IMG/VR virus record: IMGVR_UViG_3300031902_000927
Direction: 5' to 3' (one strand)
DNA: 64,000 bases
Source: a virus
Taxonomy: Duplodnaviria; Heunggongvirae; Uroviricota; Caudoviricetes
The notes under the pieces were generated by a model that saw only the letters and a program-made list of their open reading frames with translations, did not search any database and was not told where the DNA came from. Of this stretch, positions 1,647-48,068 are shown piece by piece. How positions within the stretch are numbered: position 1 is the stretch's first letter; every line of letters begins with the position of its first letter. The position numbers and the translations under genes were made by a program.

Positions 1647-2056
1647 TGCAACTAGCACCAGATACAAGTAAGCAAAGAGCAGAAAAGATTGAGCTTATTA
1701 AGAAAATAGACACATTTAAATATAAAAGTGAGTCGGAAAAACAAAAAGACCAGGAGAGAGTAGGAGAGTTAGAAAAAGAAATTTTAGATATTATTCACAA
1801 GGCACTTGGGGAGCAGAAATCAGAAATTGTGGATATAAAACCAGAGTTGAAACCAGAAGAAAAGTTAATTACTTTAAAAGCAGCAAAGAGATTGCTTCGT
1901 GATAAATATGAGTATTATAGGATATTATGTCTTGATAGTCGTGAATTTACAGAAACATTAGTAAGAAAAAAAGAAGATGGAAGAAAAATTATGGAGATTA
2001 TATCTTCAGACAATTTTGATGAGAAAAAAGCTATATCAGAAATTTTGAGGTTTTGA
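1646..2056 (+). CDS. hypothetical charged coiled-coil protein
   Basis: K/E-rich, in co-directional overlapping gene chain. Confidence 0.4.
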   Translation: MQLAPDTSKQRAEKIELIKKIDTFKYKSESEKQKDQERVGELEKEILDIIHKALGEQKSEIVDIKPELKPEEKLITLKAAKRLLRDKYEYYRILCLDSREFTETLVRKKEDGRKIMEIISSDNFDEKKAISEILRF

Positions 2057-2639
2057 TGAAAATCTGTAGTGTTAAAGGATGTGAAAGTTTGTGTGTTGGG
2101 AAAGGATATTGTAGAAAACATTATATGCAAATATATAATCACGGAAAAATATTAAGTATTACAATATTCACACCAAATAAAATAATATTATATAAAGATA
2201 GAGCAGAAATAGTTTTAAGAAATATAAAACATAAAGAAGTTGGAAAAGCTATAATTGATTTAGAAGATGTTGAACGAGTAAATAAGCATAAATGGTATTT
2301 ATCTAAAGGTTATGCAGTTAGTCATATTAATAATAAATTTATTTTTTTACATAATTTTATTTTGGATAGAAAAGAAAATACAAACTATAAATATTGTTGT
2401 GACCATATAAATAGAAATAGATTAGATGATAGAAAAACTAATTTGAGAATAGTGGATTATTCTTTAAATAACATAAATAAATCTATTTCTAAATCTAATA
2501 AGTCTGGTATTGTTGGTGTATTTTTTATAAACCAACAAATAGATGGTTATCACATATAACTAAAAATGGAAAAAGACTTTCTTTAGGATATTTTAACACA
2601 AAAGAAAAGGCAGAACAAAAAAGAAAAAAGCAGAAATAG
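2053..2639 (+). pseudogene. HNH (HNH_3-type) + AP2-domain homing endonuclease, reading frame broken in a T6 run (2521-2526)
   Basis: N-terminal CxxGC...GYCRKHY zinc motif, FLHNFIL and CDHINRNRLDDRKTNLRIV HNH motifs; AP2 domain (RWLSHITKNGKRLSLGYFNTKEKAEQKRKK) continues in the -1 frame and aligns gap-free if the T-run is T7. Confidence 0.6.
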
Positions 2640-2664: not shown

Positions 2665-5469
2665 ATGATAACTGTAATTAAAGGGAAAGAAGAAGAAAGT
2701 GGAGTAACTTTAAGAATACGTGATAGTGATACAAATACAACTTCTGAAAGATACTTTGATTTCACTAATTATTTTTATATAAAAGAAGAAGACTATCAAG
2801 ATGTTTCTTACATTGTAGACCCATTAATTAAAGATAAGATATTAGTAGAAGATAAAGACAGTAATCAATATTATCAATTACTTTTAAAAAATAATTTTCA
2901 TAGAAATATGATTAGAAATCAAATTGAAGAATTAGGAATATCAACATTTGAAGCGGACCTAACAGCCGTTAAAAGAATGATGGTTGATAATGCACATTTA
3001 CCACTTCATCAAGAAGGATTAAGAATTGCATTTTACGATATAGAATCTGACGATAGAAAGCCATTTGTTAAAGATATAAAAGGTGATATTGTTCCAAAAT
3101 ATCCAATAACTTCAATGGCCGTTAAAGAGTACAAAAGAGGATTTGAAACACCTGTTTGGTATGTTAGAAACGAAGGTCTCGATGGACCAGAGTTTGACGA
3201 ATATAGAGCTTTAAGAAAAGAATATTTAGAATTAAAGAATCAAGAATTGAATACAAAAGAAGTTTATGCAAAATTACAAATATGGGATGTCGAGAAAGGT
3301 CCTGTAGATAATGCTTTATGGGAAGGCGAATATATAATGTTGCAAAAATATCTTGAATATATAAAAGATTTTGATGTAGTTAGCGCGTGGAATGGATTAA
3401 AATTTGATGACCCATATACTCGTGAAAGAACAAAATATCATATGAAATATCATCCTATAAATGATTATGAATCTTTGATGTTGGTAGGTTTTGATTATCA
3501 AGCATCTTATATGTTAAATCACTATACTCCAATAAAGTCTTTTGCTTTGAATAATGTTGCACAAGAAGAATTAATTTCAGAATTAGGAAAGGAAGGTTCC
3601 AAATTAACTCATCCAGATGAAATAAAAAAATTAGATTGGAGAGAAAGAACTAAGTGTGAAAAATATTTTGAATTATTTTTATTATTTCCAGAAGTTCATA
3701 AAGAGTACAACATACAAGATGTAAATTTATTAGAAATGTTAGAGGACAAATTAGGATTTTTCAAATTACATTTTGTACAATGTAAAAAAGCGCACTGTAT
3801 GTTAATTGATTCATTGTATGATAGTAGAATTTGTGATTATATGATTTTAAATGAGAGTAAGAATAGAAAGATTATAAAATTATCAAAGCCAAATGAGTCA
3901 GAAGTAAATGATAGAGAAAACAAATCTGCTCCTGGAGGTTACACATTCTGCGAAAAGCCAGGGATACATTGGAGTGTACTTTGTTATGATTTTCAATCAC
4001 ATTATTTGAATATTATGAGAACATTTAATATTTCTGCTGAAACTTATATAAGAAGTGTTATGCCTGATTTAACAAAAGTCTTTACACCAATTGAGCAAGA
4101 ATATGTAATGTTTTGTATGAATGAAGCTCCAAAGTTTTTAGATAAACAAAACAAATTCCAAAAGAGAAAGTACGATATTCACATTGAAGAAAAAAGAGTT
4201 CAACTTAATGTTAATACAATGGAAGTATTGATGTGGAAATTTATTAATAATTACGACCAAAAAATAGAACATTCTGAAATGGAATGTTATACACCTGCTG
4301 ATATTAATCGTGATGTAAGAGGATGGAATGTACACGGACATTATATTTTTACTAAGGAATTTAGAGGTATAACACCAACAATTTTAGACGATTTATTGGA
4401 AGATAGAAATAAAGTAAAGTATTCTTTAAAATCAATTAAAGATAGTTTTGAATACGATGAAAAGAATTATTATCAATTAGGTTTAAAAAAATTAGGTAAT
4501 GTTTTCTATGGATATTCATTATATAGAGCATCAAGAGATTACAGATTCGAGATTGGTGCAGCAATTACAACTTCGGCAAGATTTTTAACAAAAATAGCAA
4601 TAATTGAGTTAAAAGCAAATGATATGTTATTATTATTCGGAGATACGGATTCTACCTACTCTACAGGAGATAAAACTTCTGAATTTTTAAAACAAGTTTA
4701 TCAAGAATTATTTGATAGAAAATTACCTGTTTTTAATACAATGAATTTTAATGGAAAGTTACACACTATAGTTTTTGAATATGAAAAAACTTATCCTGGA
4801 ATAATACCTATTAAGAAAAAGAGATATTATTATTTTTTAGATGGAAAAATAGATGGAAAAGGTGGAGTACAAACAAGGTCAGATGTTTTAAAACTTGCTA
4901 AAGATTTACAGAAAGAATTACTTGAAGATATTTTTAACAAGAGATTTGTTAAAGAACATTGGAAAGAAAAATTATTTTCTTTAAAGACAAAAATTTCAAA
5001 TTTTGAACTTGAAGAAGAACACATTGTTAGGATTTCTGGTTTAGCAAAACCAATAAATCAATATGGAAAACCAATGTTTGATGGTGCAACTGGATTGCAA
5101 AAGACTTCAAAAGACGGAAAACCAAGATGTGCTCCTATTCCTGCAAACGTCCAAATAGCTATAAGACTTCTTGAAGAAGGAGAAAATGTAAATGTTGGAG
5201 ATAAGATTCGATTTATTGTAGCATCAACTAAACCAAAAATTCAACCAATTACTTTAAAAGAATATAGAGCAAATAAGAGATATGATGTGAACTACTACTA
5301 CGAAAAAGTAATAAAAGCAATACTTGAAATTTTAATTGTTGTTTATCCAGAGGATGTTTACACATATTTTGCAGATTGTTGGCTTTACAGTCCAAAACAA
5401 ATTAAAAGATTACAAGAAGAAATTTCAGAAGATGAAGATGAAGATTCATCTGAAGATGGCGATGAGTAA
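2665..5469 (+). CDS. family B DNA polymerase (3'-5' exo + polymerase domains)
   Basis: Exo I FYDIESDD, Exo II NGLKFDDPY, Exo III YNIQDVNLL; Pol A YDFQSHYLNIM, Pol B KKLGNVFYGYSLY, Pol C LLFGDTDSTYS; acidic C-terminal tail. Confidence 0.9.
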   Translation: MITVIKGKEEESGVTLRIRDSDTNTTSERYFDFTNYFYIKEEDYQDVSYIVDPLIKDKILVEDKDSNQYYQLLLKNNFHRNMIRNQIEELGISTFEADLTAVKRMMVDNAHLPLHQEGLRIAFYDIESDDRKPFVKDIKGDIVPKYPITSMAVKEYKRGFETPVWYVRNEGLDGPEFDEYRALRKEYLELKNQELNTKEVYAKLQIWDVEKGPVDNALWEGEYIMLQKYLEYIKDFDVVSAWNGLKFDDPYTRERTKYHMKYHPINDYESLMLVGFDYQASYMLNHYTPIKSFALNNVAQEELISELGKEGSKLTHPDEIKKLDWRERTKCEKYFELFLLFPEVHKEYNIQDVNLLEMLEDKLGFFKLHFVQCKKAHCMLIDSLYDSRICDYMILNESKNRKIIKLSKPNESEVNDRENKSAPGGYTFCEKPGIHWSVLCYDFQSHYLNIMRTFNISAETYIRSVMPDLTKVFTPIEQEYVMFCMNEAPKFLDKQNKFQKRKYDIHIEEKRVQLNVNTMEVLMWKFINNYDQKIEHSEMECYTPADINRDVRGWNVHGHYIFTKEFRGITPTILDDLLEDRNKVKYSLKSIKDSFEYDEKNYYQLGLKKLGNVFYGYSLYRASRDYRFEIGAAITTSARFLTKIAIIELKANDMLLLFGDTDSTYSTGDKTSEFLKQVYQELFDRKLPVFNTMNFNGKLHTIVFEYEKTYPGIIPIKKKRYYYFLDGKIDGKGGVQTRSDVLKLAKDLQKELLEDIFNKRFVKEHWKEKLFSLKTKISNFELEEEHIVRISGLAKPINQYGKPMFDGATGLQKTSKDGKPRCAPIPANVQIAIRLLEEGENVNVGDKIRFIVASTKPKIQPITLKEYRANKRYDVNYYYEKVIKAILEILIVVYPEDVYTYFADCWLYSPKQIKRLQEEISEDEDEDSSEDGDE

Positions 5470-8045: not shown

Positions 8046-8497
8046 AGCCTTGGATTTACAAAGGTAAAGAATATACAAAAGCAGATGCGGAAATAGAAGC
8101 ATTTGTTTATTTAATTGTTGGTCCAGAAAAAACTTATATAGGAAAAAAGAACTTTTGGCATACGTTAAAAAGACCTCCAAAAAAAGGAAATAAGAATAAA
8201 AGACACGAAATAAAGGAAACAGAATGGCAATCTTATTGTGGTTCAAGTGAAGCATTATTAGAGGATATAAAAAAATTTGGAGAAGATAAATTTCATAGAG
8301 AAATATTGATTTTATGCAGCAAGAAATGTATTGCTTCTTATTTTGAATTATATTTTCAAATGCAAGAGAATGTTTTATTTGACACTTTTTCTTATAATAA
8401 TATTATTAATATACGACTTAACGGAAACATATTTCTTAATCATAAAGATGAATGTCGTAGAATTCTTAAAGAGCTTGAAGCTAAGAACAAATTTTAG
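8042..8497 (+). CDS. possible GIY-YIG-like nuclease domain protein
   Basis: FVYLIVGPEKTYIGKK resembles GIY-(9-11)-YIG, with downstream R/E; weak. Confidence 0.3.
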   Translation: MKPWIYKGKEYTKADAEIEAFVYLIVGPEKTYIGKKNFWHTLKRPPKKGNKNKRHEIKETEWQSYCGSSEALLEDIKKFGEDKFHREILILCSKKCIASYFELYFQMQENVLFDTFSYNNIINIRLNGNIFLNHKDECRRILKELEAKNKF

Positions 8498-8516
8498 GTA
8501 AAAAGATTTATATACT
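8483..8516 (+). promoter_or_regulatory. 34-nt conserved element AAGAACAAATTTTAGGTAAAAAGATTTATATACT (copy 1), BRE/TATA-like core
   Basis: Perfect 34-nt direct repeat of 20561-20594; purine-rich stretch then TTTATATA about 40 nt before next ATG (8553). Confidence 0.45.
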
Positions 8517-16534: not shown

Positions 16535-16652
16535 AATGAAAAGAAGATTTTTAAATAAAACAATGCAGCAACATTATGAGACTCTTGTAATTAAAGATGG
16601 ATTACATTGGAAGACGGCAGAAAAGCTAGTTAAGAAAATTTATGAGTAAAAA

Positions 16653-17021
16653 ATGGCAAATAAAAATATTTTAAATAATAAGTTTACATTTTATATTGTA
16701 TTATCAATATTTATATTTTTTATAGCGATGGCTATAATTACTTCCAATATTAATAGTAAATTGACAGATGATTCTAATATTTGTTTAGATGAAATTAGAA
16801 ATAATTCTTCGATGGATAGTAGTATAAATCGAATTCATTCTACGCTTTGTATAGACAAAATTAAAGATTCTTGGAAATTTAAGTATGTATCATTTTTTTA
16901 TAGACCTAATGTACCAAGTAGTGTTTCTGTAAATCATAATTATGAAAATTTTTGTACTATAGAGGTTGCAAATCAATTCGGTGTAGCAGATAATGTTTGG
17001 AGTTATTGTAGATATAGTTAA
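16653..17021 (+). CDS. hypothetical membrane-anchored protein
   Basis: N-terminal TM FYIVLSIFIFFIAMAIITS; Cys-containing. Confidence 0.4.
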   Translation: MANKNILNNKFTFYIVLSIFIFFIAMAIITSNINSKLTDDSNICLDEIRNNSSMDSSINRIHSTLCIDKIKDSWKFKYVSFFYRPNVPSSVSVNHNYENFCTIEVANQFGVADNVWSYCRYS

Positions 17022-17029
17022 GAAAATTT

Positions 17030-20561: not shown

Positions 20562-20594
20562 AGAACAAATTTTAGGTAAAAAGATTTATATACT
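20561..20594 (+). promoter_or_regulatory. 34-nt conserved element (copy 2), followed by dyad TAGCTTT-GG-AAAGCTA
   Basis: Identical to 8483-8516. Confidence 0.45.
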
Positions 20595-22884: not shown

Positions 22885-23232
22885 ATGATGAAAGATATAA
22901 CAATTAAAAATGAAGGTAATTATGCAAAAGTATATCGTAAAGATATGTATATTGGAATTGTTAAAACATATCGATATAATATGAATGATGTAAATATTGA
23001 AGATATAACAGTTAAAAAACAAGGAATTTATATAAGAGTTTATTGGAAAGGACAACGTATGTGGACTGAAAACACCAAGAATATTTTAAAAAGTAATGGC
23101 GCAACTAGATTTAAAATGTTTGCCTCAATATATCATTTGATGTTAAAACAACCTTTTATTCCAAATGGAATGGAAGAATTACACAAAAAAGAAATTAATC
23201 ATAATAAACATTATCCTTATGGAGACGATTGA
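22885..23232 (+). CDS. hypothetical protein with internal duplicated 25-aa motif
   Basis: DITIKNEGNYAKVYRKDMY / DITVKKQGIYIRVYWKGQR. Confidence 0.4.
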   Translation: MMKDITIKNEGNYAKVYRKDMYIGIVKTYRYNMNDVNIEDITVKKQGIYIRVYWKGQRMWTENTKNILKSNGATRFKMFASIYHLMLKQPFIPNGMEELHKKEINHNKHYPYGDD

Positions 23233-23380
23233 ATGGTAACACATCTTGGAGATAGTAGAAGAAGAACTACATTAAGTGAACATAGACTTTTAGAAAATTA
23301 TCGAGAAGTAAATGAGAATCCGAAAATTAATACTCATTCTCCAGATGGTCGAGAAGAAATTTATATGAAATGAGGCGAAA

Positions 23381-23878
23381 ATGAAAATTAACAACAAACA
23401 ACATATTACAAAGAAAGGTATTGTTAAGAAGAATCCACCAAGTTGGAAAGATAAGTGGAAAAAGATAGCAGACAACAATTATGAAGTTGTTTTTGATTTA
23501 ATTAATATTAATAGTCCAGGTAGTGAAATTCCTTTGAAAAGAGTAAGTGTAATCAATGATTATACAGGAAGTACAGATAAATATGATTTGAATGATGCTT
23601 CTTGGTCGGTTGTAATCGCCAGTAACAATAAAGAAAGTTTTGAAAGTTTTATGGGTAAAAAAGCAGCAATGGATTATGCTATGGAGTATATGAAAAATAA
23701 TTCCAAAGTAAAAATAATACAAAATGTTTTAAATGAGAAAGAGCAGAAAATAGATAATGTTGGTAAAAGAAATTATTCCATTGACACAAAAGGTGGATTC
23801 ATTCATAAAGGAGCAGATTATTTTTTAGGTCCAGACCCAAGAAAACATAAAGATTATAAAAGATTAAAAGGTAAATAA
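23381..23878 (+). CDS. MKIN-tag family protein E
   Basis: MKINNKQHITKKGIVKKNP; 50-nt identical 5' module with copy B. Confidence 0.6.
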   Translation: MKINNKQHITKKGIVKKNPPSWKDKWKKIADNNYEVVFDLININSPGSEIPLKRVSVINDYTGSTDKYDLNDASWSVVIASNNKESFESFMGKKAAMDYAMEYMKNNSKVKIIQNVLNEKEQKIDNVGKRNYSIDTKGGFIHKGADYFLGPDPRKHKDYKRLKGK

Positions 23879-25787: not shown

Positions 25788-26864
25788 ATGAAAAAAAATA
25801 TTTTAATTTTATTTTTTATAATGTTTATGAGCATTGGATTTGTTGCAGCTATAGATATTTCTCCTTATGAATTTGTCAATGAAGGAAATTTCGATGTATC
25901 TAATATGCCACAATTTGATTTTGGAAATTGTACACAGGCTTATGATGGAAATTTAGAAACATATTGTGATATTTCTACTGGAAGTAATGATAGAACAGGT
26001 TATGTCTATTTTTATTTCAATGCTACAGATTCTCATTATAATGTTAATTTGACGATGTTATGGACACCTTTTGCAGTTAATAGTGCAGATGATGGTGAAG
26101 GTGGTTGTACTACCCCAACTTATACACATCCTTGGAATGTTTCTTTATACAATGTAAATACAGATAGCTATGATTTAATTAATATAGTTTCTGGAACATC
26201 TTATGATTTGTCTTCAGATTATGTTTCTTCTAATGGTTCTATTGTTGTTAGGGTTTATACAGAAGAATTTGACCCAACAATGAGATTTGCTTCTGGTTGT
26301 ACTAACACTCCTTTAACTTCATTGTATGATGTTGTTGTAGGATATAATGATGTTGCACCAGATAATAATGCACCTTCTTGTAATGTTACAATAAATGATG
26401 TAATTTTTGAGAATGGTATGATAATCAATACAGAAAATAATACGATATTGTTTAGTTGCAATGATAATCAATCAGGTATGCAGAATATGGTATTTGATTT
26501 ACAAGCTCCAGGTAGTGTTTCAATTTTTACATCAGCAGCTAGTGGTGTAACAGAATTATTAAATTATGCAAATAATTTAGTTAATGGAACAACTTATACT
26601 TTTGTTTCAATGTTAGGGTATGATAACAATAATAATGTTTATGATGGTGGTTATCAACAATACTTTATAGTAGAATTATCTGTAGCTAATATAACACAGA
26701 ATATCACACAGAATATAACACAAAATGATACGACAGGTCATAGTCATCATAATTTAATTTCTGGAGATGTTGTTTCAGATACTTCAAACACGAATACAAA
26801 TATTGAGAGTCAAAATATATTTCAGAGATTTTGGAATTGGATTTTATCTTTATTTAAATCGTAA
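25788..26864 (+). CDS. secreted protein with NITQ sequon repeats
   Basis: Signal peptide MKKNILILFFIMFMSIGFVAA; NITQNITQNITQN; many N-x-S/T. Confidence 0.5.
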   Translation: MKKNILILFFIMFMSIGFVAAIDISPYEFVNEGNFDVSNMPQFDFGNCTQAYDGNLETYCDISTGSNDRTGYVYFYFNATDSHYNVNLTMLWTPFAVNSADDGEGGCTTPTYTHPWNVSLYNVNTDSYDLINIVSGTSYDLSSDYVSSNGSIVVRVYTEEFDPTMRFASGCTNTPLTSLYDVVVGYNDVAPDNNAPSCNVTINDVIFENGMIINTENNTILFSCNDNQSGMQNMVFDLQAPGSVSIFTSAASGVTELLNYANNLVNGTTYTFVSMLGYDNNNNVYDGGYQQYFIVELSVANITQNITQNITQNDTTGHSHHNLISGDVVSDTSNTNTNIESQNIFQRFWNWILSLFKS

Positions 26865-28469: not shown

Positions 28470-28760
28470 ATGGTATCGCTAAAAGATAGAAGGAATTCTG
28501 GAAAATATACTCCAAAGGCGACTTGTAGTTCCAAGGAGTTAAAACAAAATAATTTATTTATCGATGAATATTATGATGATTGGGAAGACCATCGCGATGG
28601 TTCTCGTGATTGGTTTCGTGATGGAAAAATGATTAAAGTTGTACCAAATTATATAAATTCAGATTCTTCATTTATAAAAAGGGTAGCTTTGAATAAAAAG
28701 CAAGAAATGTTGTTGCGCCGAAGGAAAGCTAGAAAGAAAAAATTAGAAAACTTTATATAA
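28470..28760 (+). CDS. hypothetical protein
   Basis: 96 aa; basic C-terminus. Confidence 0.35.
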   Translation: MVSLKDRRNSGKYTPKATCSSKELKQNNLFIDEYYDDWEDHRDGSRDWFRDGKMIKVVPNYINSDSSFIKRVALNKKQEMLLRRRKARKKKLENFI

Positions 28761-28781: not shown

Positions 28782-29741
28782 ATGAGGAAAGCGTTTGTGG
28801 GGTTTGTGGGTGTATTAGTTATCTTATCTATATTTACAACAGGTTGCAGCAAAAGTGACCCTTATAATCCTTCAAATTTTATAGATTATTCTAAGCCGAG
28901 ATTCAGTTGGTTTGATAAAGACAAGCCAAATGCAACAATATCAAATTCTACGACATTTACAAAGACTAAATTTGTTCAACAAATTCCAGAAGGTAGAGAT
29001 TATTGGATAGGAACATTTAACATTGAAACGTTTGGCGCAACTAAGGCCGAAAATACGCCTGTTTATGAGGCAATTTTAAACATTATTAGACAATATGATA
29101 TTATAGCCATACAAGAAATCCGTGATAATTCTGGGACAGTTGCCGCGCATCTAGGAAATATTAGTGGGTATCGGTTGGAGATGTCTGATAGGTTGGGGAG
29201 AAGTATTTCTAAGGAACAATATGCGTTCCTATGGACAGGCAGGGTTGTTCCAGGAGTGTCACGGCAATATCCAGACTCAAATGACAAATTCGAGAGACCA
29301 CCATTTATGATGGACTTTACTTTAGATGATTATCATTTTGTAATAATTACAGTTCACACAAAACCAGAAGATGCACAAGAAGAAATTAAAGCTCTTCCAG
29401 AAGTAGTAGATTGGGCGAGAACACAATATCAATTAGATGATATTTTTATAATGGGAGACCTAAATATGGATTGCACATATTTTAATAAATTTAATTTAGC
29501 GTTTACAAATTATACACTTTTAATAAATGAGAAGGCAGATACTACAGTCTCTAAGACTACTAATTGTGCTTATGATAGGATTGTTGCAACTAGAATTAAT
29601 GATAATATTTTATCAAGTGGTGTGGATAACGAAGAAGCAGCCACAGATGGTGATGAAACATTACAGTCGGCAATTTCCGACCATTGGCCTGTTTATTGGA
29701 CTTATAAGAAAGCAGAAATAAATACTACCATTGAGAATTGA
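28782..29741 (+). CDS. secreted lipoprotein nuclease/phosphatase of the endonuclease-exonuclease-phosphatase (EEP, DNase I-like) family
   Basis: Signal + lipobox-like FTTGC; IIAIQEIRD, FIMGDLNMD and SDHWPVY EEP motifs. Confidence 0.7.
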   Translation: MRKAFVGFVGVLVILSIFTTGCSKSDPYNPSNFIDYSKPRFSWFDKDKPNATISNSTTFTKTKFVQQIPEGRDYWIGTFNIETFGATKAENTPVYEAILNIIRQYDIIAIQEIRDNSGTVAAHLGNISGYRLEMSDRLGRSISKEQYAFLWTGRVVPGVSRQYPDSNDKFERPPFMMDFTLDDYHFVIITVHTKPEDAQEEIKALPEVVDWARTQYQLDDIFIMGDLNMDCTYFNKFNLAFTNYTLLINEKADTTVSKTTNCAYDRIVATRINDNILSSGVDNEEAATDGDETLQSAISDHWPVYWTYKKAEINTTIEN

Positions 29742-29966: not shown

Positions 29967-30386
29967 ATGAATGATGAAGAATTGAAAAAGGAATTTGGAG
30001 AAGATGTGATTAAAAAGGATGATAATATTACTCCTAAGAAAAAAGATAGTTTTTGGAAGTCTCTATTTTTTCCAATTTTAGTTATAGTATTAGCAATTGT
30101 AGCTTTGATTTATTTCGGAGCAATACCTAGTATAATACATAAAGTAAATGAGACACAAAATAATACTCAAAATATTTCGTTATATACACAAGAAACTTGT
30201 AAATGTGGTCCTTGTAATATGACAATATCTTTATCAAATTTATCTAAAGAAGGATATAAAGATTTAAAATGTTGTGTTCACGCAACTTGGAATACTACGA
30301 CCAATCAATGTGATTTTAAATATCAAACAACAAAGATAGTATTACCAAAACCAACTGTTGTGAATAGTACAACTAATGCAAGTTAA
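29967..30386 (+). CDS. membrane-anchored Cys-containing protein
   Basis: TM LFFPILVIVLAIVALIYFGAIP; CKCGPC. Confidence 0.4.
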   Translation: MNDEELKKEFGEDVIKKDDNITPKKKDSFWKSLFFPILVIVLAIVALIYFGAIPSIIHKVNETQNNTQNISLYTQETCKCGPCNMTISLSNLSKEGYKDLKCCVHATWNTTTNQCDFKYQTTKIVLPKPTVVNSTTNAS

Positions 30387-30394
30387 TACTCACA

Positions 30395-30975
30395 ACGAGT
30401 GCCTACACGATAGTTTTTGGGTTTTGTTCTGATTTTAACGATGACGAACATACTCACATCTTTTTCCCAATAACAAATGAGTGTAGTAAAATCATATGCG
30501 AGATTGAAGAGTCTCTAAAAAGCATATCCGTAAAAGGGAGTACAGACGTAAATCGTAAGGTGGTCTGTATTTGATATTTTCAAATTCCTGAAACATCCAC
30601 AGTCTTATTGGTGTGTTATGACTTTGAGGGTTTAAGAGTCTGTTTCGATAAAATATTTTATTGATGCGAGTAAAGAGATAATTCCTCTTTGTAAAAATTA
30701 TACGCCCTACGCTGACTGTAGAACAAACAAGATTTATCCAAGAGGTAAAACTCGGCGAAAGCTTCAAATGGCTTGTTTGTGGATGCAGGATAGACCAGGT
30801 GGTAAGGCACACAAATAAGTCCTTATTGCCTTAAAAATTATCTCGGAAATGCGATAGGGACAAAAGTGTTAGCAGACGGTTAGAACACGATGAAGCTTGG
30901 ATGCTTTGCTTGATTTAATAATCGTTATAAGACGCATTGACACACAAATCCTCGCAAGTTTTCCGAGATTAATTA
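30395..30975. ncRNA. GC-enriched island without + strand ORF: candidate structured RNA or cis element
   Basis: About 580 nt with clearly higher GC than flanks; only a low-complexity minus ORF (30492..30812). Confidence 0.25.
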
Positions 30976-30977
30976 CA

Positions 30978-31073
30978 ATGATAAAAGTTAAATGCGAAAG
31001 ATGCGATAAACCAAAAGACAATCCTTATGAATATTTTGAAGGAATGTGTAAAGAATGTTATTATGGAGAATAA
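30978..31073 (+). CDS. tiny zinc-ribbon protein (31 aa)
   Basis: MIKVKCERCDKPKDNPYEYFEGMCKECYYGE. Confidence 0.3.
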   Translation: MIKVKCERCDKPKDNPYEYFEGMCKECYYGE

Positions 31074-31074
31074 A

Positions 31075-31506
31075 ATGAGTGCTACCGATTATTATTTTTG
31101 TCCTAAGTGTAAAAATAAAGTTATTGATTATGTAAATAAATGGATTTTATTAATTGATAATGAATATGGAAAAGTAGATTTGTCCACGTGGGAAATGTTA
31201 GTAAAGTGTAAAGCTTTAATAATTGATTATCAAAAAGCTTGGAAGAATGAGTCGGAATCCTTTAAAGAACCGAAAGATGCTTCAAAACTATTTGATTATT
31301 TAGAAGAACATTTTGAAGGAGATTTTGATGGTTGTGAAATTCAAGGAGTAGAAAATTCATTCACAACAATTCGTTATGATTCCGATACGGCAATAAGTGA
31401 TGATGGTTTATTAGATATGTCAGAAACATATGATTGTCAATGTTGTGATTTTCATATTGAAATATCTAAGATTTGGAAAGAAGGAAAGAATGAAGAGGCA
31501 AAATGA
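31075..31506 (+). CDS. hypothetical protein with N-terminal CPKC zinc motif
   Basis: ATG 31075 directly after upstream stop; track ORF opens at 31027. Confidence 0.45.
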   Translation: MSATDYYFCPKCKNKVIDYVNKWILLIDNEYGKVDLSTWEMLVKCKALIIDYQKAWKNESESFKEPKDASKLFDYLEEHFEGDFDGCEIQGVENSFTTIRYDSDTAISDDGLLDMSETYDCQCCDFHIEISKIWKEGKNEEAK

Positions 31507-31682
31507 ATAGTAGTTTATTTCAACCAGATTGGTTTTGGATAACATTTATATTTGTAATCTGTTTAGGAGCAGCATTAGAAGTGTGGTCTCATAATAAAAA
31601 TAATCACGGGTATTTTAGTGATGCTTTAATTTTAGCAGCTTTAATGGGGTTTGCTAAATATACAATTATAAGAGGTTGGTAA
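31503..31682 (+). CDS. small membrane protein (59 aa)
   Basis: ATGA overlap; WFWITFIFVICLGAAL. Confidence 0.3.
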   Translation: MNSSLFQPDWFWITFIFVICLGAALEVWSHNKNNHGYFSDALILAALMGFAKYTIIRGW

Positions 31683-31953
31683 TTTGGATTGTAAAAAGAT
31701 TATGAGAAATGGGAACAGATGTCCAAAAACAGCAATGCTTTCTGGATATTGTATTAGACATTATACTCAAGTAATGGAAGTAAAAAGGTACAAAAAGTGA
31801 AATATTCCAAAGAATTAAAAGAAGCTTGTCAAGAACTTTCAACTAATCTTGATGATTGGATTGAAATGAAAGATGGTCCGATGATTATTAAACAATTACA
31901 AAAAATCAAGACGACTATTATGAAATTTGAAGTAGAAAATATGAGATGATATT

Positions 31954-32256
31954 ATGAATTCAGAAGGAACACAAAATAAAGAAATATATGTAGATGATGA
32001 AGATATGTATAAATATTGTCCAATTTGTGCCGAACCTTGGGAAAATCACACATCTGGTTTAATACTAGATGAGAATGGTAAACAACAGATGGAGTGTAAT
32101 CCTTTAAGATTAATAATGTTGAGAAAGCCAAGATTTTATGTAATTGATGTTGATAATTACAACGAGGAATTCCTAAAAAGTATAATATTGTGGCAAGATG
32201 AATATATAAATTATCTTGTTAAAGAAAATTTAATTTTAAAAGAAAAGAATAAATGA
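31954..32256 (+). CDS. zinc-ribbon protein
   Basis: CPICAEPWENH...C. Confidence 0.4.
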   Translation: MNSEGTQNKEIYVDDEDMYKYCPICAEPWENHTSGLILDENGKQQMECNPLRLIMLRKPRFYVIDVDNYNEEFLKSIILWQDEYINYLVKENLILKEKNK

Positions 32257-32434
32257 GGTAATAACTTGAACGATTCCTTAGAAACGATTTGTTTGAACCA
32301 ATTTATTAAACCAAAATATCATATTGAAAGAGAAGGTTATGGAAATTGCATAACTTGTCTTAGAGATTAAAGTAACATTAAATGTAAAGGGTATTATCCA
32401 ATAAAAATTAGATATTTTATAGTAGAGGATAAAA

Positions 32435-32551
32435 ATGGTTAAAGTTAAATGTCCCAAGTGTAAAGAAAAGATTTTAGGAGATAAGGAAGTTGGTAAAGAA
32501 TTAACTTGTTGTAAATGCCAACATAAATTCGTTGTGACTAAAAATGGATAA
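32435..32551 (+). CDS. tiny zinc-ribbon protein (38 aa)
   Basis: GAGGATAAAAATG; CPKC...CCKC. Confidence 0.35.
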   Translation: MVKVKCPKCKEKILGDKEVGKELTCCKCQHKFVVTKNG

Positions 32552-32744
32552 TTTAATATATGATGATATGGTTAAGAAGTATGCTGAAATTCAAAGATTT
32601 GGTTTTCGTATTAAATTTGTTTGCATTAAATGTGGAGCATCTTTTGATGTAGATGATTTAAATTTAGCATTACCACATAAAATAAATTGTGATATGATTA
32701 ATAGAAATAATGATTTTAGGAGTAAAAATGAAAATAACATTTAA
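32544..32744 (+). CDS. small Cys-containing protein
   Basis: CIKCG...C. Confidence 0.35.
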   Translation: MDNLIYDDMVKKYAEIQRFGFRIKFVCIKCGASFDVDDLNLALPHKINCDMINRNNDFRSKNENNI

Positions 32745-33336
32745 ATTAGTTGATGAGCAACACGTTGATATAATGTGTGGAGAAAATAAGATAGGACATA
32801 TTTTTAGTCCGAGTGGTTCTGGAGAAAATGTTTTAAATGCTATTCAAGTGTGTGGCTTCGATGAAGCATTTTCTTTATGGGGATGTGGATGTTTTGCAGA
32901 GAAGAAAAAGAAAGATTCTAAAGCAGGTGAATATTCTTGTTCTTCTATTATGAAGAAGGATATTCAGTTGAGATTTTCCGATTATGTTAATGATAAAGAT
33001 TCTAATAATCATTATTACCGTAATTGTACAAGATGTTATAATAGTCCTTGTACTTGTGAAGTTCTAGGACAAAATGGCATACCTTTTATTGTTAAGCACG
33101 AATATGAGATTAAGGATAAATTGGAGTATAAGAATGGAGAAATTGCTGCTCAAAATGAAGTAGAACAATTTTCTATGGGAAATATAAATAATTCACAAAA
33201 GATAGATGGTAGTAATCTTTGTCCAAAATGCAAATCTAAAAATATTAGATATTTTCAACAACCAGATGAATGGATGAAAAATCAACCTTATAATTCAATA
33301 TGTGAAAATTGTAAACATAGATTTAATCGAGTATAA
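32728..33336 (+). CDS. cysteine-rich protein with C-terminal zinc ribbons
   Basis: CPKCKSKN...CENCKHRF. Confidence 0.4.
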   Translation: MKITFKLVDEQHVDIMCGENKIGHIFSPSGSGENVLNAIQVCGFDEAFSLWGCGCFAEKKKKDSKAGEYSCSSIMKKDIQLRFSDYVNDKDSNNHYYRNCTRCYNSPCTCEVLGQNGIPFIVKHEYEIKDKLEYKNGEIAAQNEVEQFSMGNINNSQKIDGSNLCPKCKSKNIRYFQQPDEWMKNQPYNSICENCKHRFNRV

Positions 33337-33337
33337 A

Positions 33338-33565
33338 ATGAAAGAATCAAAATTTCATTTGATATTATTTTTTGTATTTTTTGTATTTTTAGTTTTTTCT
33401 ACATATTGTTTTGTAAGAAATAGTCAATTAAAATTATACGAATATATGTTTTTATTTTTTTTTATTTTCGTGGCAAATTATTTTAATTGGACAAGATTTA
33501 TTGATATTAAAAAGAAAGAAGAATTTAAAGAATGGAAAAAGAGTGTACTTGGAGAGGATTTGTAG
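33338..33565 (+). CDS. small membrane protein
   Basis: 2 TM; internal ATG after upstream stop. Confidence 0.35.
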   Translation: MKESKFHLILFFVFFVFLVFSTYCFVRNSQLKLYEYMFLFFFIFVANYFNWTRFIDIKKKEEFKEWKKSVLGEDL

Positions 33566-33574
33566 GAGGACAAA

Positions 33575-33829
33575 ATGCGTTATAGTAGAAAGAATGTTAC
33601 AAATACACGTAGAAGCAGCGTAAAGAAGCTAGTTTCTGCTAAAAAGAAAATAATCCATATACCATTATCTATAAGAAAGATAAATAAAGATAATATAATA
33701 AAGATTTGTGATTTTTGTAGCACTCCTACAGATGATATTTGTAATGAATGTAAACGACCAATTTGTTCGATACATTCGTTAGAAAATAAATCACATCAAT
33801 GTGAAATTAATAAAAATAAAAAGAAATAA
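33575..33829 (+). CDS. basic zinc-finger protein
   Basis: CDFCSTP...CNECKRPIC. Confidence 0.4.
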   Translation: MRYSRKNVTNTRRSSVKKLVSAKKKIIHIPLSIRKINKDNIIKICDFCSTPTDDICNECKRPICSIHSLENKSHQCEINKNKKK

Positions 33830-34141
33830 AATGGATATACAATTAAGATATTATGGAGTGTGTCTTGGAGTTTGTTCTGGAGCTTCTATAATGTTAGGAT
33901 TTATTGCTTTATCACCTAAAGGTGTAAGTTTATCACATCCAATTTTATTTGGTATATTTTTATTATTTTAGCAATAGTTACATTTATTGGAGCACTATAT
34001 ACTGTAAAAAGGTCAGATAAATGAACAATAGAACTCACAAATGTATAAGATGCAGAAAAACGTATCTTATCACACCAGAAGCTACACAATTTCATTTGAC
34101 GTGCGAAATAGTTAAATGGAACGCAAATTGGAAGAAATAAA

Positions 34142-34357
34142 ATGCAAGTAGATAAAATTCAACTCCATAAAAAACTTCCTAATGGAAAAAAACAAGTATA
34201 TTTTAGATGGATATGCTCTTGTGGAAGTTCAAATAAAGAAGATACATTTAGATGTAAAAAATGTTCAACTGATAGATTTACATTTGTAGAAGAATTAGCA
34301 TTGGGTAAGAGAATTACAAAAAAATTATTACAATTAAAAAGGAAACACATATCATAG
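34142..34357 (+). CDS. zinc-ribbon protein
   Basis: CSCGS...CKKCS. Confidence 0.4.
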   Translation: MQVDKIQLHKKLPNGKKQVYFRWICSCGSSNKEDTFRCKKCSTDRFTFVEELALGKRITKKLLQLKRKHIS

Positions 34358-34390
34358 TCCAAAAATAATTCTTGCAATGGACAAACCTCT

Positions 34391-34427
34391 TGGGTAGGGA
34401 TTGGCGAATCTCTACCCAGTTATTTTT
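34391..34427 (+). terminator. rho-independent terminator-like hairpin + T-run
   Basis: TGGGTAG...CTACCCA stem followed by TTATTTTT. Confidence 0.5.
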
Positions 34428-34435
34428 AAAGCAAG

Positions 34436-34711
34436 ATGGAGATTAAAATGGGAAATTATAATTACAAGAAAGATATAATAGTTAGTCCAAAAGATAAAGT
34501 TAAAATAAAAATTGGAGAATATATTTCAGTAGTATTTGAAAAAGATAAGAATGAATATTTTGGTCCAGAGACATTAAAAGAAGGAGATTGTTTTTGGACA
34601 ATAAGAATGGATAAAGATACTTATTTTGATACTTTAAGACAAGAAGATGCAATTATCATAAGTAATCAAATTAAAATAATGTCGATGCTTACTGATATGG
34701 TTAGGGAATAA
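34436..34711 (+). CDS. hypothetical protein
   Basis: 91 aa. Confidence 0.4.
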   Translation: MEIKMGNYNYKKDIIVSPKDKVKIKIGEYISVVFEKDKNEYFGPETLKEGDCFWTIRMDKDTYFDTLRQEDAIIISNQIKIMSMLTDMVRE

Positions 34712-34712
34712 A

Positions 34713-34994
34713 ATGGGAAGAAAAGAATGTAGGTGCAGAACGTGCAGTCATATTAATCATTTGAGATTTGATAAAAGGCTTAGAGAACAAGGCAAGAAAA
34801 CAGATGTTTATGATATAATTAATATTGATTTTGAAGAGAAAATTGGCATAATTCATTGGCGTGGAGGTTGGAGGCAGTATGTTTCAAGAACCAATCCAGA
34901 AGTTGATATGTCAAGAAGCTGCAACAAAGAAGTAAATGATTTTATTGATAAATTGATGGAAGAGAGAAGGAGAAAAGATGAAGAAAATAATTAA
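34713..34994 (+). CDS. hypothetical protein with CRCRTCSH motif
   Basis: 93 aa. Confidence 0.4.
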   Translation: MGRKECRCRTCSHINHLRFDKRLREQGKKTDVYDIINIDFEEKIGIIHWRGGWRQYVSRTNPEVDMSRSCNKEVNDFIDKLMEERRRKDEENN

Positions 34995-35238
34995 TTCGAA
35001 AACTATTGAATCATTATATATTATATCTTTGGAAAATTTATTAGTTATCACATTTCTTATTGTATCGATTGTTTATCATATAATATATGGAATTATATTT
35101 TTATCTATTTTCTTTGTATTATTTAATCTTTTAGCATATGTATCTGTTATCAGAGATTTAGATAAATATAATTTTCAAGAATGGAAAGCAAGAAATATTT
35201 ATTTGATTGATTGGAAGAATGTCAAGGAGAAGAAATGA
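34978..35238 (+). CDS. membrane protein
   Basis: 2 TM. Confidence 0.4.
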   Translation: MKKIINSKTIESLYIISLENLLVITFLIVSIVYHIIYGIIFLSIFFVLFNLLAYVSVIRDLDKYNFQEWKARNIYLIDWKNVKEKK

Positions 35239-35855
35239 AACTAACAATAGGAGATTTATCCGAAGCCTTAGCAAGATTGAAGAAAAAGAATGGATATATG
35301 TATAATCCTTCTGAAAATGAAATACGAGAAGAAGCTATCTTATACGTAGGAGAACAGAATGGTTGGTTGATTGGATTTTTTGAAGGGCAAGTAAGTTTCA
35401 GCGTGAATATTTCCTTGACAAGTACAAAGAATAAAAGATATGTATTTTTCAAGCCAAATATAATTATATCTAATTCTGATGAGCATCAATTGAAATTTAT
35501 TGTAGATGTTTTACAATTAAAAACAAATATTACTAAAAAGAAGAAGAGAGATTCTTCTCACAATGATTGTCATACACTTAATATACAAGACCTTTCAGAT
35601 ATTTGTAATGTAATTGATAAGCTCTCAAATTGTGATTTTGTTTCACAAATAAAAAAAGAAAAGTTCCAGAGATTTGTTGATTGCTGCGCTTATATAACTA
35701 GGAACAACCTTGCTTCTAATACGGAATGGAAGGAGTCTTTTGTTGAAGCTCTTGATAAAAAGTTAAAGATTAATGATTCGCGTTCTAACATTGCTTCTCA
35801 AAGATATAGTAAAGAGGTCTGGGTAAACAAGATAAAGGACCATTTAGATTCTTGA
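35235..35855 (+). CDS. degenerate LAGLIDADG-like homing endonuclease/maturase-like protein
   Basis: GWLIGFFEGQVSFSVNISLTS...RYVFFKPNIIISNSDEHQLKFIVDVL parallels I-CreI LAGFVDGDGSIIAQIKPNQSYKFKHQLSLTF, but the catalytic Asp position is Gln. Confidence 0.35.
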   Translation: MKLTIGDLSEALARLKKKNGYMYNPSENEIREEAILYVGEQNGWLIGFFEGQVSFSVNISLTSTKNKRYVFFKPNIIISNSDEHQLKFIVDVLQLKTNITKKKKRDSSHNDCHTLNIQDLSDICNVIDKLSNCDFVSQIKKEKFQRFVDCCAYITRNNLASNTEWKESFVEALDKKLKINDSRSNIASQRYSKEVWVNKIKDHLDS

Positions 35856-35859
35856 GGCA

Positions 35860-36420
35860 TTGAATTATTCTGAAATGTATTGTTCTAAATTTATTTTATA
35901 ATTGCTACGTAGGTCTATCTCCATACGTAATTAGGAGCTTGTTAGGATAAAATTACTTATTTTCCACTAATATTGACGATAGAATTGACCGTTTTCTAAG
36001 AAGTATGCAAGGCATACAATGTATGCAATGTATGTGGCCAGATTCACAGATATATGTGAAAGAAACTCAATTCAATTATGGATTCTTACAGATTTTGTAA
36101 GAATAATACGCAATTGGACTACATATCCTATACAATTCGCGTAGTTGTTCCCATATTTAACGCCGTAGGCTTCAGCAGATGGGTCTGCTACACGACTTCT
36201 TAGCAGCTTTGGTAGGATTCTTGGTACAGATGGTACTGTTGCTTCCGAAGAGGCTTCCGCTTCAGAAATAGATGGGAACAACCTGCTGCGCTGCTTCAGA
36301 AACGGTCTGAAGCTACATCAAACTTCAGTAAACTTCAGTAAACTGCCGTAAACTAAACGTTTAGAATTTATATAAAGTCATCCGAAACCTTTATAAATGA
36401 CTATATTATTTCCAAATTGT
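35860..36420. ncRNA. GC-enriched island without + strand ORF with long-range pairing: candidate structured RNA
   Basis: GTTGTTCCCAT (about 36146) pairs with ATGGGAACAAC (about 36275); hairpin GCTTCAGA-aacgg-TCTGAAGC; GTAAACT x4 and CAATGTATG repeats. Confidence 0.3.
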
Positions 36421-47260: not shown

Positions 47261-47429
47261 GGCAAGAATAACAGCAGAAGCATATTACAATGAATTATTT
47301 TCATTGGAAACAAGAAAGAAAGAACTGACAACAGAATTACAATCAATAAATAAAAGAATGGAAGAATTAAATAAAATGGAAATCAGTAATGATGCCAGAA
47401 CAATTGCAATGACAAGAAGTAGACAATAA
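47235..47429 (+). CDS. small coiled-coil protein (paralog of 48663..48860)
   Basis: GAGGAGGAAAAG SD; shared KARITAEAYYNELFSLETRKKEL. Confidence 0.45.
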   Translation: MAQKKESFKARITAEAYYNELFSLETRKKELTTELQSINKRMEELNKMEISNDARTIAMTRSRQ

Positions 47430-47439
47430 TGGAGGAAAA

Positions 47440-47754
47440 ATGAAAATAACAGAAAAAGGAATGGAAATATCTAAGTATATTATAACAATTGAAGGTATTG
47501 ATTACTTTAATCCAAATACCGATGTGTATTTTAAGCTTGATAGTAAAGCAAAACCACACGAAGAACACACAACTTGGAATTTTTATTGCAACCCACACAC
47601 AGGCGACATACATTATGCCACAAGAAAAGGTTGTCAAATGGGTGGCGGATTTTTTGAACAACATTTCCGTAAACAAGACATAAAGAAATTTAAAGAAATA
47701 TGTAGAAAGGCCAAAGATGATGTGTTGAAATATGTAGAAAAAGGCCAAAGATGA
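47440..47754 (+). CDS. hypothetical protein, 3' end altered by a 32-34-bp tandem duplication
   Basis: Duplication 47697-47762 introduces frameshift and stop. Confidence 0.4.
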   Translation: MKITEKGMEISKYIITIEGIDYFNPNTDVYFKLDSKAKPHEEHTTWNFYCNPHTGDIHYATRKGCQMGGGFFEQHFRKQDIKKFKEICRKAKDDVLKYVEKGQR

Positions 47755-47795
47755 TGTGTTGAAACAATTAGAAAATATAAAACTAAAGGTGTAAA

Positions 47796-48068
47796 ATGAA
47801 CTACAAATTAATTGCAAGAAAATGGGCGATTGAAATATTAAAAATATTGAAAAACTCCGAGGATAAATTAAGATACAATGAAATAAAAAAGAAATTACCA
47901 AGAACAACTCCAAAACAATTATCACTTTGTTTGAATGATTTGGTTTATGAAAAAATTATAACAAAAGAAATCATTTCAACTAAAATGCCTATTCAATGTT
48001 GGTATTCTTTAACAAATAAAGGTAATAAACTTATGATTATTTTAGAAGATTTGGAGAAACTAAAATGA
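47796..48068 (+). CDS. HxlR/MarR-like winged-helix transcription regulator
   Basis: KWAIEILKIL...LRYNEIKKKL...KQLSLCLNDLVYEKII...YSLTNKG. Confidence 0.5.
   Translation: MNYKLIARKWAIEILKILKNSEDKLRYNEIKKKLPRTTPKQLSLCLNDLVYEKIITKEIISTKMPIQCWYSLTNKGNKLMIILEDLEKLK

Follow-up and report, generated by a model that had tools for sequence, protein, structure and literature searches.

A GC-enriched, ORF-free island in a putative archaeal virus genome: a candidate lineage-specific structured non-coding segment

Compact viral genomes rarely retain inert DNA, and a long gap between two genes of such a genome therefore raises the question of what it contains. The locus examined here is a GC-enriched interval without a plus-strand open reading frame in a record from the IMG/VR collection (IMGVR_UViG_3300031902_000927), within a stretch of 64,000 nucleotides that was analyzed as a whole and is referred to below as the window. 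The first-pass annotation, which was made from the sequence alone, had described an island of about 580 nt at this site and regarded it as a candidate structured RNA or a replication or packaging element. Our answer is tentative. We place at about 0.4 the probability that a polycistronic plus-strand transcript carries the island as a structured RNA segment specific to this lineage, and at best it represents an unconfirmed lineage-specific RNA element.

The island and its genomic setting

The window has a GC content of 28.5%, and the genes in its first 58 kb lie almost entirely on the plus strand, often with overlapping stop and start codons; every ORF of at least 150 aa in this region is on the plus strand save 47383..47925. 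The encoded proteins include a family B DNA polymerase (PolB), an ATP-dependent ligase, a ParB-like protein, a DNase I-like (Exo_endo_phos) lipoprotein, and a LAGLIDADG-like protein. The polymerase shares only 22-24% identity with those of cultured phages, few PHROG matches were obtained among ten large proteins tested, and a nucleotide search of the phage collection with the window gave no match. Among cellular proteins, the best homologues of the DNase I-like protein belong to Methanomicrobiaceae and Methanolobus (Methanomicrobia). Moreover, the motif AAANTTTATATAAAG, which resembles an archaeal BRE/TATA promoter, was found 25-35 nt before the ATGs of several gene clusters. On these sequence grounds, we infer that the virus infects an archaeon, possibly a methanogen, and belongs to a novel, almost unsampled lineage.

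The island extends from the TAA stop codon (30384-30386) of the upstream ORF to the next plus-strand start, an ATG at 30978 (Table 1), and gene callers left this interval empty on 15 independent metagenomic contigs. Stop codons interrupt all six frames (12, 11, 20, 11, 6, and 9 per frame), and all three stop codons occur in five of the six, the exception being a minus frame that lacks TAG. Because every frame is interrupted and five use every stop codon, recoding of a stop codon cannot rescue an ORF, and a hidden or recoded reading frame was ruled out by the 6-20 stops per frame. The sole ORF of at least 60 aa is a 106-aa frame on the minus strand.

At 0.369, the GC content of the island exceeds the window mean of 0.285 by a z of about +3 (sd 0.028 among 591-nt windows), and just 0.35% of 591-nt windows are as GC-rich. 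Within the island, GC peaks at 0.425 at 30700-30899. The enrichment is real, though not unique in the window, since the DNase I-like gene (28.7-29.4 kb), another gap (35.7-36.7 kb), and a portion of a gene on the minus strand near 60.8 kb reach equal values. When ORFs of at least 50 aa are counted, the first 58 kb contain two plus-strand gaps longer than 500 nt, namely the island and 35856..36418; the remaining listed gaps contain small ORFs, which leaves two non-coding gaps longer than 300 nt in 58 kb, the island included. The earlier description of a GC-enriched island without a plus-strand ORF, set among otherwise tightly packed plus-strand genes, was thus essentially correct, coordinates included.

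The island is single-copy, with no paralog or second copy in the window. No repeats beyond chance-level two-copy repeats were detected in it, whether tandem, dispersed, or iteron-like, and no known motif, promoter, terminator, or repeat was recognized. Its 5' part contains T5 runs at 30414 and 30461, which were considered as archaeal terminators and rejected; T5 runs are too frequent in this genome (144 per 58.5 kb) for these two to be called as such.

Table 1. Features of the island and its surroundings. Folded elements are predictions, and the per-domain z-scores are inflated because domain boundaries were picked after folding.
Feature	Coordinates	Strand	Evidence or remark
Upstream gene, 139-aa single-pass membrane, Cys-rich protein	29967..30386	+	Complete, not interrupted
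Island, ORF-free and GC-enriched intergenic segment	30387..30977 (591 nt)	+	Six-frame stops, GC, fold z-scores
5' part of the island, no significant structure	30387..30492	+	z -1.27 (+), -1.06 (-) for 30387-30500 (first 114 nt)
Predicted hairpin UAUGC GAGAUU / AGUCUC GCAUA	30493..30528	+	Probabilities 0.91-0.99; z -3.49 (+), -2.01 (-)
Predicted 8-bp hairpin, 15-nt loop	30539..30571	+	z -3.21 (+), -3.63 (-); not strand-specific
Domain A, predicted 205-nt multibranch	30586..30790	+	Probabilities 0.84-0.99; z -3.38 (+), -2.67 (-)
18-nt segment AAACTCGGCGAAAGCTTC with GCGAAAGC GNRA-type hairpin	30748..30765	+	Deleted in variant L015
Hairpin B, predicted 11-bp stem AGGUGGUAAGG / CCUUAUUGCCU, three G·U pairs	30797..30831	+	Probability 0.98; z -4.08 (+), -0.92 (-)
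Domain C, predicted 130-nt irregular hairpin	30840..30969	+	Probabilities 0.81-0.95; z -3.60 (+), -3.27 (-)
106-aa ORF, rejected as a gene	30492..30812	-	No homologue, no Pfam match, uncalled in 15 contigs
31-aa CxxC...CxxC (zinc-ribbon-like) ORF, putative first gene of the lineage-specific block	30978..31073	+	Sequence inspection only
143-aa gene, second gene of the lineage-specific block	31075..31506	+	Relatives only L016 and L017, in other neighbourhoods, no island upstream
Lineage-specific block of about 4.8 kb (island and about 15 small genes)	30387..35210	+	No counterpart between homologous flanks in L019/L022

Predicted RNA fold and comparison with known RNAs

Folding of the plus strand of the island gave a minimum free energy of -152.7 kcal/mol, where dinucleotide shuffles averaged -130.4 ± 6.2 (z -3.58; 0 of 100 folded as well), and an independent run gave a z of -4.29 (30 shuffles). 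The baseline z of 28 other 591-nt plus-strand windows was -0.09 ± 1.33, and the island was the most negative of about 30 windows of this length. The signal is strong, yet not of another order than the background, in which one coding window reached the minimum of -3.19. The minus strand of the island scored -2.17, and stability on one strand beyond that expected from composition, a generic test for structured ncRNAs, was therefore found. In 200-nt windows, z was negative throughout 30200-30999 and returned to about 0 in the flanking genes.

The predicted structured core spans about 480 nt (30493..30969) and consists of two small hairpins, domain A, hairpin B, and domain C, with helix pair probabilities of 0.8-0.99 in the island. 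Domain A is closed by the helix UCCUG..CAUCC / GGAUG CAGGA and has three internal hairpins, among its helices a 9-bp arm (30723-30731 / 30772-30780). The stability of hairpin B is specific to the plus strand. Domain C is nearly palindromic, and its two strands fold almost equally well; it rests on a perfect 10-bp helix, AUCUCGGAAA / UUUCCGAGAU, and ends 9 nt before the ATG at 30978. The fair statistics for this fold are the whole-island z and the strand asymmetry, and both favour RNA structure on the coding strand over a DNA palindrome, domain C excepted.

The covariance-model scan proposed in the first-pass annotation was performed, and no family was matched. Rfam 15 (4227 models) gave no match over the whole window at gathering thresholds; at E up to 10, the interval 30200-31200 gave four noise matches with 14-19 bits against thresholds of 37-71. 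The models presumably include group I/II introns, ROOL, GOLLD, OLE, RNase P, SRP, 6S, riboswitches, and ribozymes. A scan of the related viral loci described below, at E up to 10, likewise returned nothing. ARAGORN detected no tRNA or tmRNA in the window, and the T-loop motif GTTCRA was absent from the island by eye. A C/D-box or H/ACA sRNA was considered on account of GAUGA and CUGA motifs and rejected, as their spacing and box order were wrong by eye and the match to SNORD11B (E 5.4) was noise. The structured-RNA proposal is thus upheld in part, with weak though genuine support: the fold is extreme and stronger on the plus strand, whereas no Rfam 15 family or homologue was matched and the island is absent in relatives.

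GC-rich non-coding islands are said to mark structured RNA genes in AT-rich archaeal genomes, an observation attributed to Klein, Misulovin and Eddy (2002) and to Schattner (2002). This heuristic was reportedly validated on hyperthermophiles, in which the contrast is far larger and the RNAs were found to be conserved and expressed. The present island resembles those cases in its GC rise within a 28.5% GC genome, its freedom from ORFs, and its one-strand folding above background, but its GC excess is modest (0.37 vs 0.285) and is common to some coding segments.

Large multi-domain RNAs offer a second comparison. Like ROOL and GOLLD of phages and prophages, and like OLE, raiA, and HEARO, the island measures about 500-600 nt, has a multi-domain prediction, lies in a viral genome, and has no adjacent partner protein identified. 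Unlike them, it gives no Rfam score above noise, and whereas those families are defined by wide conservation and covariation, the island has no known homologue. It is rather unlikely that it represents an undescribed large (about 480 nt) multi-domain RNA, an archaeal-virus counterpart of ROOL/GOLLD sampled in a single viral species. ORF-less group I/II introns share its length, GC enrichment, and lack of an ORF, and the genome does encode a LAGLIDADG-like protein; however, there was no Rfam match at E up to 10, intron models included, and the flanks are unrelated complete ORFs, the downstream one with its own ATG. Because both flanking ORFs are complete and the upstream one ends like its L019 homologue, there is no interrupted gene for an intron to splice. 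A self-splicing intron was rejected, as neither joined exons nor a catalytic core (P3-P9 with a G-binding site, or domain V) was found. The island fits no described family and is a candidate lineage-specific structured non-coding segment of the viral genome.

If the fold is functional, the island would be transcribed as an internal part of a long polycistronic plus-strand transcript. The best plus-strand matches to AAANTTTATATAAAG are at 26863, 28748, 36363, and 51669, the first two standing about 25-35 nt ahead of their ATGs. No match with two or fewer mismatches lies inside the island, and since the nearest plus-strand ones are at 28748 and 36363, the island is probably contained within one long operon transcript. 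Acting in cis, it would serve as a structured leader or spacer where an accessory block of about 4.8 kb begins. The 3' arm of domain C contains the sole SD-like GAG upstream of the ATG at 30978, 9-18 nt away (a weak GAG, read from the sequence), and the 10-bp basal helix could sequester it and thereby gate translation of the downstream gene or genes. The arrangement suggests such sequestration, on the strength of this weak GAG and a putative 31-aa ORF. A cis-acting spacer might also decouple translation of the downstream genes from that of the upstream genes, possibly with a role in stability or as a processing site. Alternatively, the island may be cut out as a stable ncRNA; we give no preference to either the cis-acting or the processed version.

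Synteny, population variation, and the possibility of a remnant

Relatives were reached through three flanking proteins: the 143-aa protein, the 139-aa protein, and the DNase I-like protein. P0019, also tried as a route, proved to lie in a cellular BREX neighbourhood. The 143-aa protein has two distant relatives with 57% and 50% identity, on contigs of 1.2-1.5 kb (L016 and L017); in L017, a 221-aa ORF abuts the homologue and thus leaves no island there. Word search with the 139-aa protein found itself alone, and an alignment-based metagenome scan yielded L022, whose genes are arranged as in L019. The related viral loci L018 (68%), L019 (51%), L020 (47%), and L021 (45%) were reached through homologues of the DNase I-like protein.

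In L019 and L022, the order is DNase, 104 aa, C5 methylase, 119 aa, a 45-nt spacer, 213 aa, and 166 aa. The 119-aa protein is the homologue of the window's 139-aa gene product (L019 11110-11469; 36% identity in the alignment, same end point), and the 166-aa protein is the homologue of window 35211..35855. In the window, the 139-aa gene is separated from a 214-aa gene by the island and about 15 small genes (30387..35210). On the basis of this synteny, the island forms the left edge of a block of about 4.8 kb that is specific to this virus. At the syntenic position in L019/L022 it is absent, and the next gene starts after 45 nt.

Sequence searches agreed with this picture. No island homologue was detected in L016-L021 by nhmmer --max or permissive blastn, and a covariance model of hairpin B and domain C, with and without filters, matched itself alone on the five related viral loci. 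BLAST of the island against phage and plasmid collections gave no match. Exact k-mers of the GC-rich core had no match in the IMG/VR collection that was scanned, which lacks the virus itself, and protein-pattern scans there also returned none. Exact 18-22-mers from the core were likewise not found in 185,579 GTDB genomes (two 20-22-mers, exact matches only), and host-derived sequence was set aside on these negative scans, which constitute a weak test limited to exact matches. The comparative alignment proposed earlier therefore found no homologue on which compensatory changes could be counted, either in L016-L021 or through L019/L022 synteny. A lack of conservation in comparative analysis, which the first-pass annotation had named as an argument against its own proposal, is what the nearest relatives display at the syntenic site.

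The virus itself is abundant. Its 139-aa upstream protein is indexed in 34 blocks of the collection, and 24 carrying contigs were read. The 15 population contigs that were fetched are clonal, with 1 SNP in about 85 kb aligned, and the island is 100% identical wherever covered, apart from one indel; because the copies are clonal, this variation is silent on purifying selection. The lone indel in the 85 kb is an 18-nt deletion inside the island, in L015. Within domain A it removes no more than the tip of the 9-bp arm, keeps the stem, and has AAA microhomology at its flanks. We counted the intact stem for the RNA reading; nevertheless, a tolerated change in a peripheral RNA helix and slippage in unconstrained DNA fit the deletion equally.

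These observations bear directly on the strongest rival explanation, that the island is a functionless remnant at the left end of a recently acquired accessory block: either DNA left over at a recombination junction, or an acquired gene or mobile element that has eroded fully, with a GC content that is foreign, perhaps from the host, and a fold that is incidental. We consider this nearly as likely as the structured-RNA reading. The position of the island coincides exactly with the boundary that separates a conserved gene from the block of about 4.8 kb that relatives lack, and the island is conserved in none of them. One kilobase upstream lies the DNase I-like gene, a foreign-looking GC-rich segment, and GC enrichment here may for this reason simply mark acquired DNA. 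The single indel polymorphism of the population falls inside the island, as unconstrained DNA would show, and the absence of any promoter, terminator, repeat, or known motif points in the same direction.

Several results oppose a remnant. No trace of protein ancestry was recovered: Pfam recognized no family in six-frame translations of the island, tblastn of the relatives' neighbouring proteins, C5 methylases included, found no trace, a profile of the gene that follows the upstream-gene homologue in L019 gave no match, and the minus-strand ORF likewise gave no match. A decayed gene was rejected on the first three of these grounds. The 6-20 stops observed per frame are close to the value of about 15 per 203 codons (about 0.07 per codon) calculated for random sequence of this composition. 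Terminal inverted repeats and extra copies are missing, a plus-strand-biased fold with z of -3.6 to -4.3 is unexpected for junk, and about 600 nt of inert DNA is rarely retained by compact viral genomes. The structured-RNA reading also gains from the fact that the island is one of two large gaps in a compact 58 kb and that the second gap, 35856..36418, carries conserved cis-elements.

Known kinds of acquired DNA match the island in part. In tailed viruses, moron-style mosaic junctions carry accessory blocks flanked by non-coding DNA with its own signals. Similarly, the island marks the exact edge of a lineage-specific block whose flanking genes are neighbours or near-neighbours in relatives; however, it has no recognizable promoter or terminator, and typical junction DNA is much shorter. 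MITEs and other non-autonomous mobile elements share its size, non-coding nature, higher GC content, and patchy distribution. Unlike them, the island shows neither terminal inverted repeats nor a target-site duplication, chance-level 10-mers apart, no second copy exists in the window, and two 20-22-mers were unmatched in the GTDB genomes. A MITE or IS remnant was rejected for want of terminal inverted repeats, target-site duplication, and multiple copies.

Regulatory-DNA and replication-origin readings, and significance

A DNA-level regulatory region, with weak promoters, operators, or a transcription-unit boundary for the accessory block and no role for RNA structure, appears improbable. Such a region would be well placed directly upstream of the first gene of a distinct block. 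TATA-like A/T boxes are present (TTTAATAA at 30914; AAAAATTAT at 30694 and 30833), and the folding of domain C on both strands could reflect an inverted repeat bound by protein. However, the virus's strong promoter motif has no match in the island at two or fewer mismatches, repeated operator-like sites were not found, and 590 nt far exceeds the other promoter regions of this virus, in which the motif stands about 25-35 nt before the ATG. This explanation would also leave the GC enrichment and the G·U-dependent plus-strand helices unaccounted for.

The proposal of a replication origin or packaging site was not borne out, and we regard it as very unlikely. A large non-coding gap in a compact genome, a local GC-skew dip at 30200-30500, and the long imperfect palindrome of domain C are in its favour. 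Against it, neither iterons nor repeats of the tandem or dispersed kind were found in the island, its composition is GC-rich and it lacks an AT-rich unwinding element, and it is not conserved in relatives; the cumulative GC skew climbs straight through it, the lone strand switch lying near 58 kb. The origin reading is further weakened because the gap at 35856..36418, 5 kb downstream, is more origin-like. Of the 18 CTTCAG sites in the window, 6 fall in that gap within a span of 170 nt, and it also contains 10-nt tandem repeats and GTTGTTCCCAT/ATGGGAACAAC, a perfect 11-nt inverted repeat conserved in L019. There, the non-coding region at the syntenic position (16542..17027) has GTTGTTCCCAT/ATGGGAACAAC at similar spacing, similar CTTCAG-type repeats, and a TTTATATAAAG box. 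The gap is thus the better candidate for an origin or regulatory hub.

Least probable of all is an orphan protein gene in the 106-aa minus-strand frame: it is longer than chance for this composition (roughly p 0.03-0.1 by our own calculation) and has AAGGA about 10 nt upstream of its GTG, but a phmmer search of 1.84 billion representative proteins gave no homologue at E up to 0.001, Pfam gave no match, the frame was never called in the 15 contigs, it opposes the nearly uniform plus-strand orientation of the larger ORFs, antisense frames typically share its richness in Leu, Ser, Arg, and Thr, and 270 nt of the island would stay unexplained. The earlier judgement that this frame is not protein-like therefore holds. 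A conserved protein translated from it in relatives, which had been named as an argument against structured RNA, was not found; with no relative among the 1.84 billion representatives, that objection does not apply.

The present value of the island is that of a flagged candidate, and our understanding of the virus is unchanged by its description. Descriptions of structured non-coding RNAs from archaeal viruses are, to our knowledge, few. Should the fold signal stem from a real RNA, the island would be a large structured ncRNA in an almost unsampled virus lineage, as its divergent polymerase (22-24% identity) and few PHROG matches indicate. A confirmed structured ncRNA in an archaeal virus would merit follow-up.

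A second non-coding gap and other fold signals

The gap at 35856..36418 is more promising than the island itself (the ORF-free, GC-enriched stretch at 30387..30977). Its minimum free energy (MFE) z-score against shuffled sequences lies between -2 and -3, and it contains a perfect 11-nt inverted repeat (GTTGTTCCCAT/ATGGGAACAAC) with arms 117 nt apart, 10-nt tandem repeats (AAACTTCAGT) and a promoter-like box (TTTATATAAAG) ahead of the next gene. Additionally, 6 of the 18 CTTCAG sites in the window are packed into 170 nt of this gap. A syntenic non-coding counterpart, located where transcription diverges, was identified in the related viral locus L019 (16542..17027); it carries the identical inverted repeat, there with arms 93 nt apart, together with CTTCAG-type repeats and a TATA box. 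Candidate roles for the gap are those of a replication origin, a regulatory hub or a structured element under conservation.

Features in and around the island (window coordinates unless a locus is named)
Feature	Location	Size	Details
DNase I-like (Exo_endo_phos) gene	28782..29741		encoded protein with lipoprotein-type signal (…TTGC)
Virus-specific block	30387..35210	~4.8 kb	~15 very small genes; specific to the present virus
Clean deletion inside the island	30748..30765	18 nt	in L015, a population contig from a different sample
LAGLIDADG-like ORF	35211..35855	214 aa	weak LAGLIDADG_1 match, E 2.6e-4, under the Pfam cut-off
Second ORF-free, GC-enriched gap	35856..36418	563 nt	GC 0.357
Recurrent AAANTTTATATAAAG motif	26863, 28748, 36363, 51669		+ strand; 25-35 nt ahead of gene starts
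Hairpin-forming non-coding stretch	L018 2135..2236	~100 nt	GC-rich (0.38)

Among the 30 windows of 591 nt tested, the second most negative MFE z-score (-3.19) belonged to 23000..23590, which is mostly coding. This segment overlaps a 148-nt gap (23233..23380) without ORFs of at least 50 aa. In L018, the closest relative by DNase I-like protein (68% identity), the hairpin-forming stretch has a small membrane ORF on one side and a C5 methylase on the other, and its position downstream of the DNase gene roughly matches that of the island. No similarity between this stretch and the island was detected by nhmmer, blastn or a covariance model built on hairpin B and domain C of the island.

Variation and gene order around the island

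The deletion in L015, possibly an assembly artefact, is the sole indel across ~85 kb of population sequence that is clonal apart from this deletion and a single SNP (31730). Many of the small genes in the virus-specific block encode CxxC pairs. At the counterpart sites in L019 (11470..12153) and in L022, a related locus from a metagenome scan (4346..5029), homologues of the block-flanking genes are separated by one gene alone, whose window homologue is found elsewhere, at 2053..2559. Because of this difference, gene order comparison indicates rearrangement or mosaicism.

The LAGLIDADG-like ORF is retained in three relatives (L019, L020 and L021) at 40-53% identity and therefore behaves like a resident gene of these viruses rather than a sporadic homing endonuclease.

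Promoter-like motifs and the DNase I-like gene

The AAANTTTATATAAAG motif resembles an archaeal BRE/TATA promoter in style, and a 25-nt sequence (TTTTAGGTAAAAAGATTTATATACT) occurs in two identical copies 12 kb apart (8492..8516 and 20570..20594). These recurrent elements suggest archaeal-type transcription units.

GC is locally high within the DNase I-like gene (0.445 at 29100-29299). The closest cellular homologues of its product are from Methanomicrobiaceae and Methanolobus, with animal DNase I representing remoter homologues. The gene was probably taken from the host, and it hints that this host is a methanogen.
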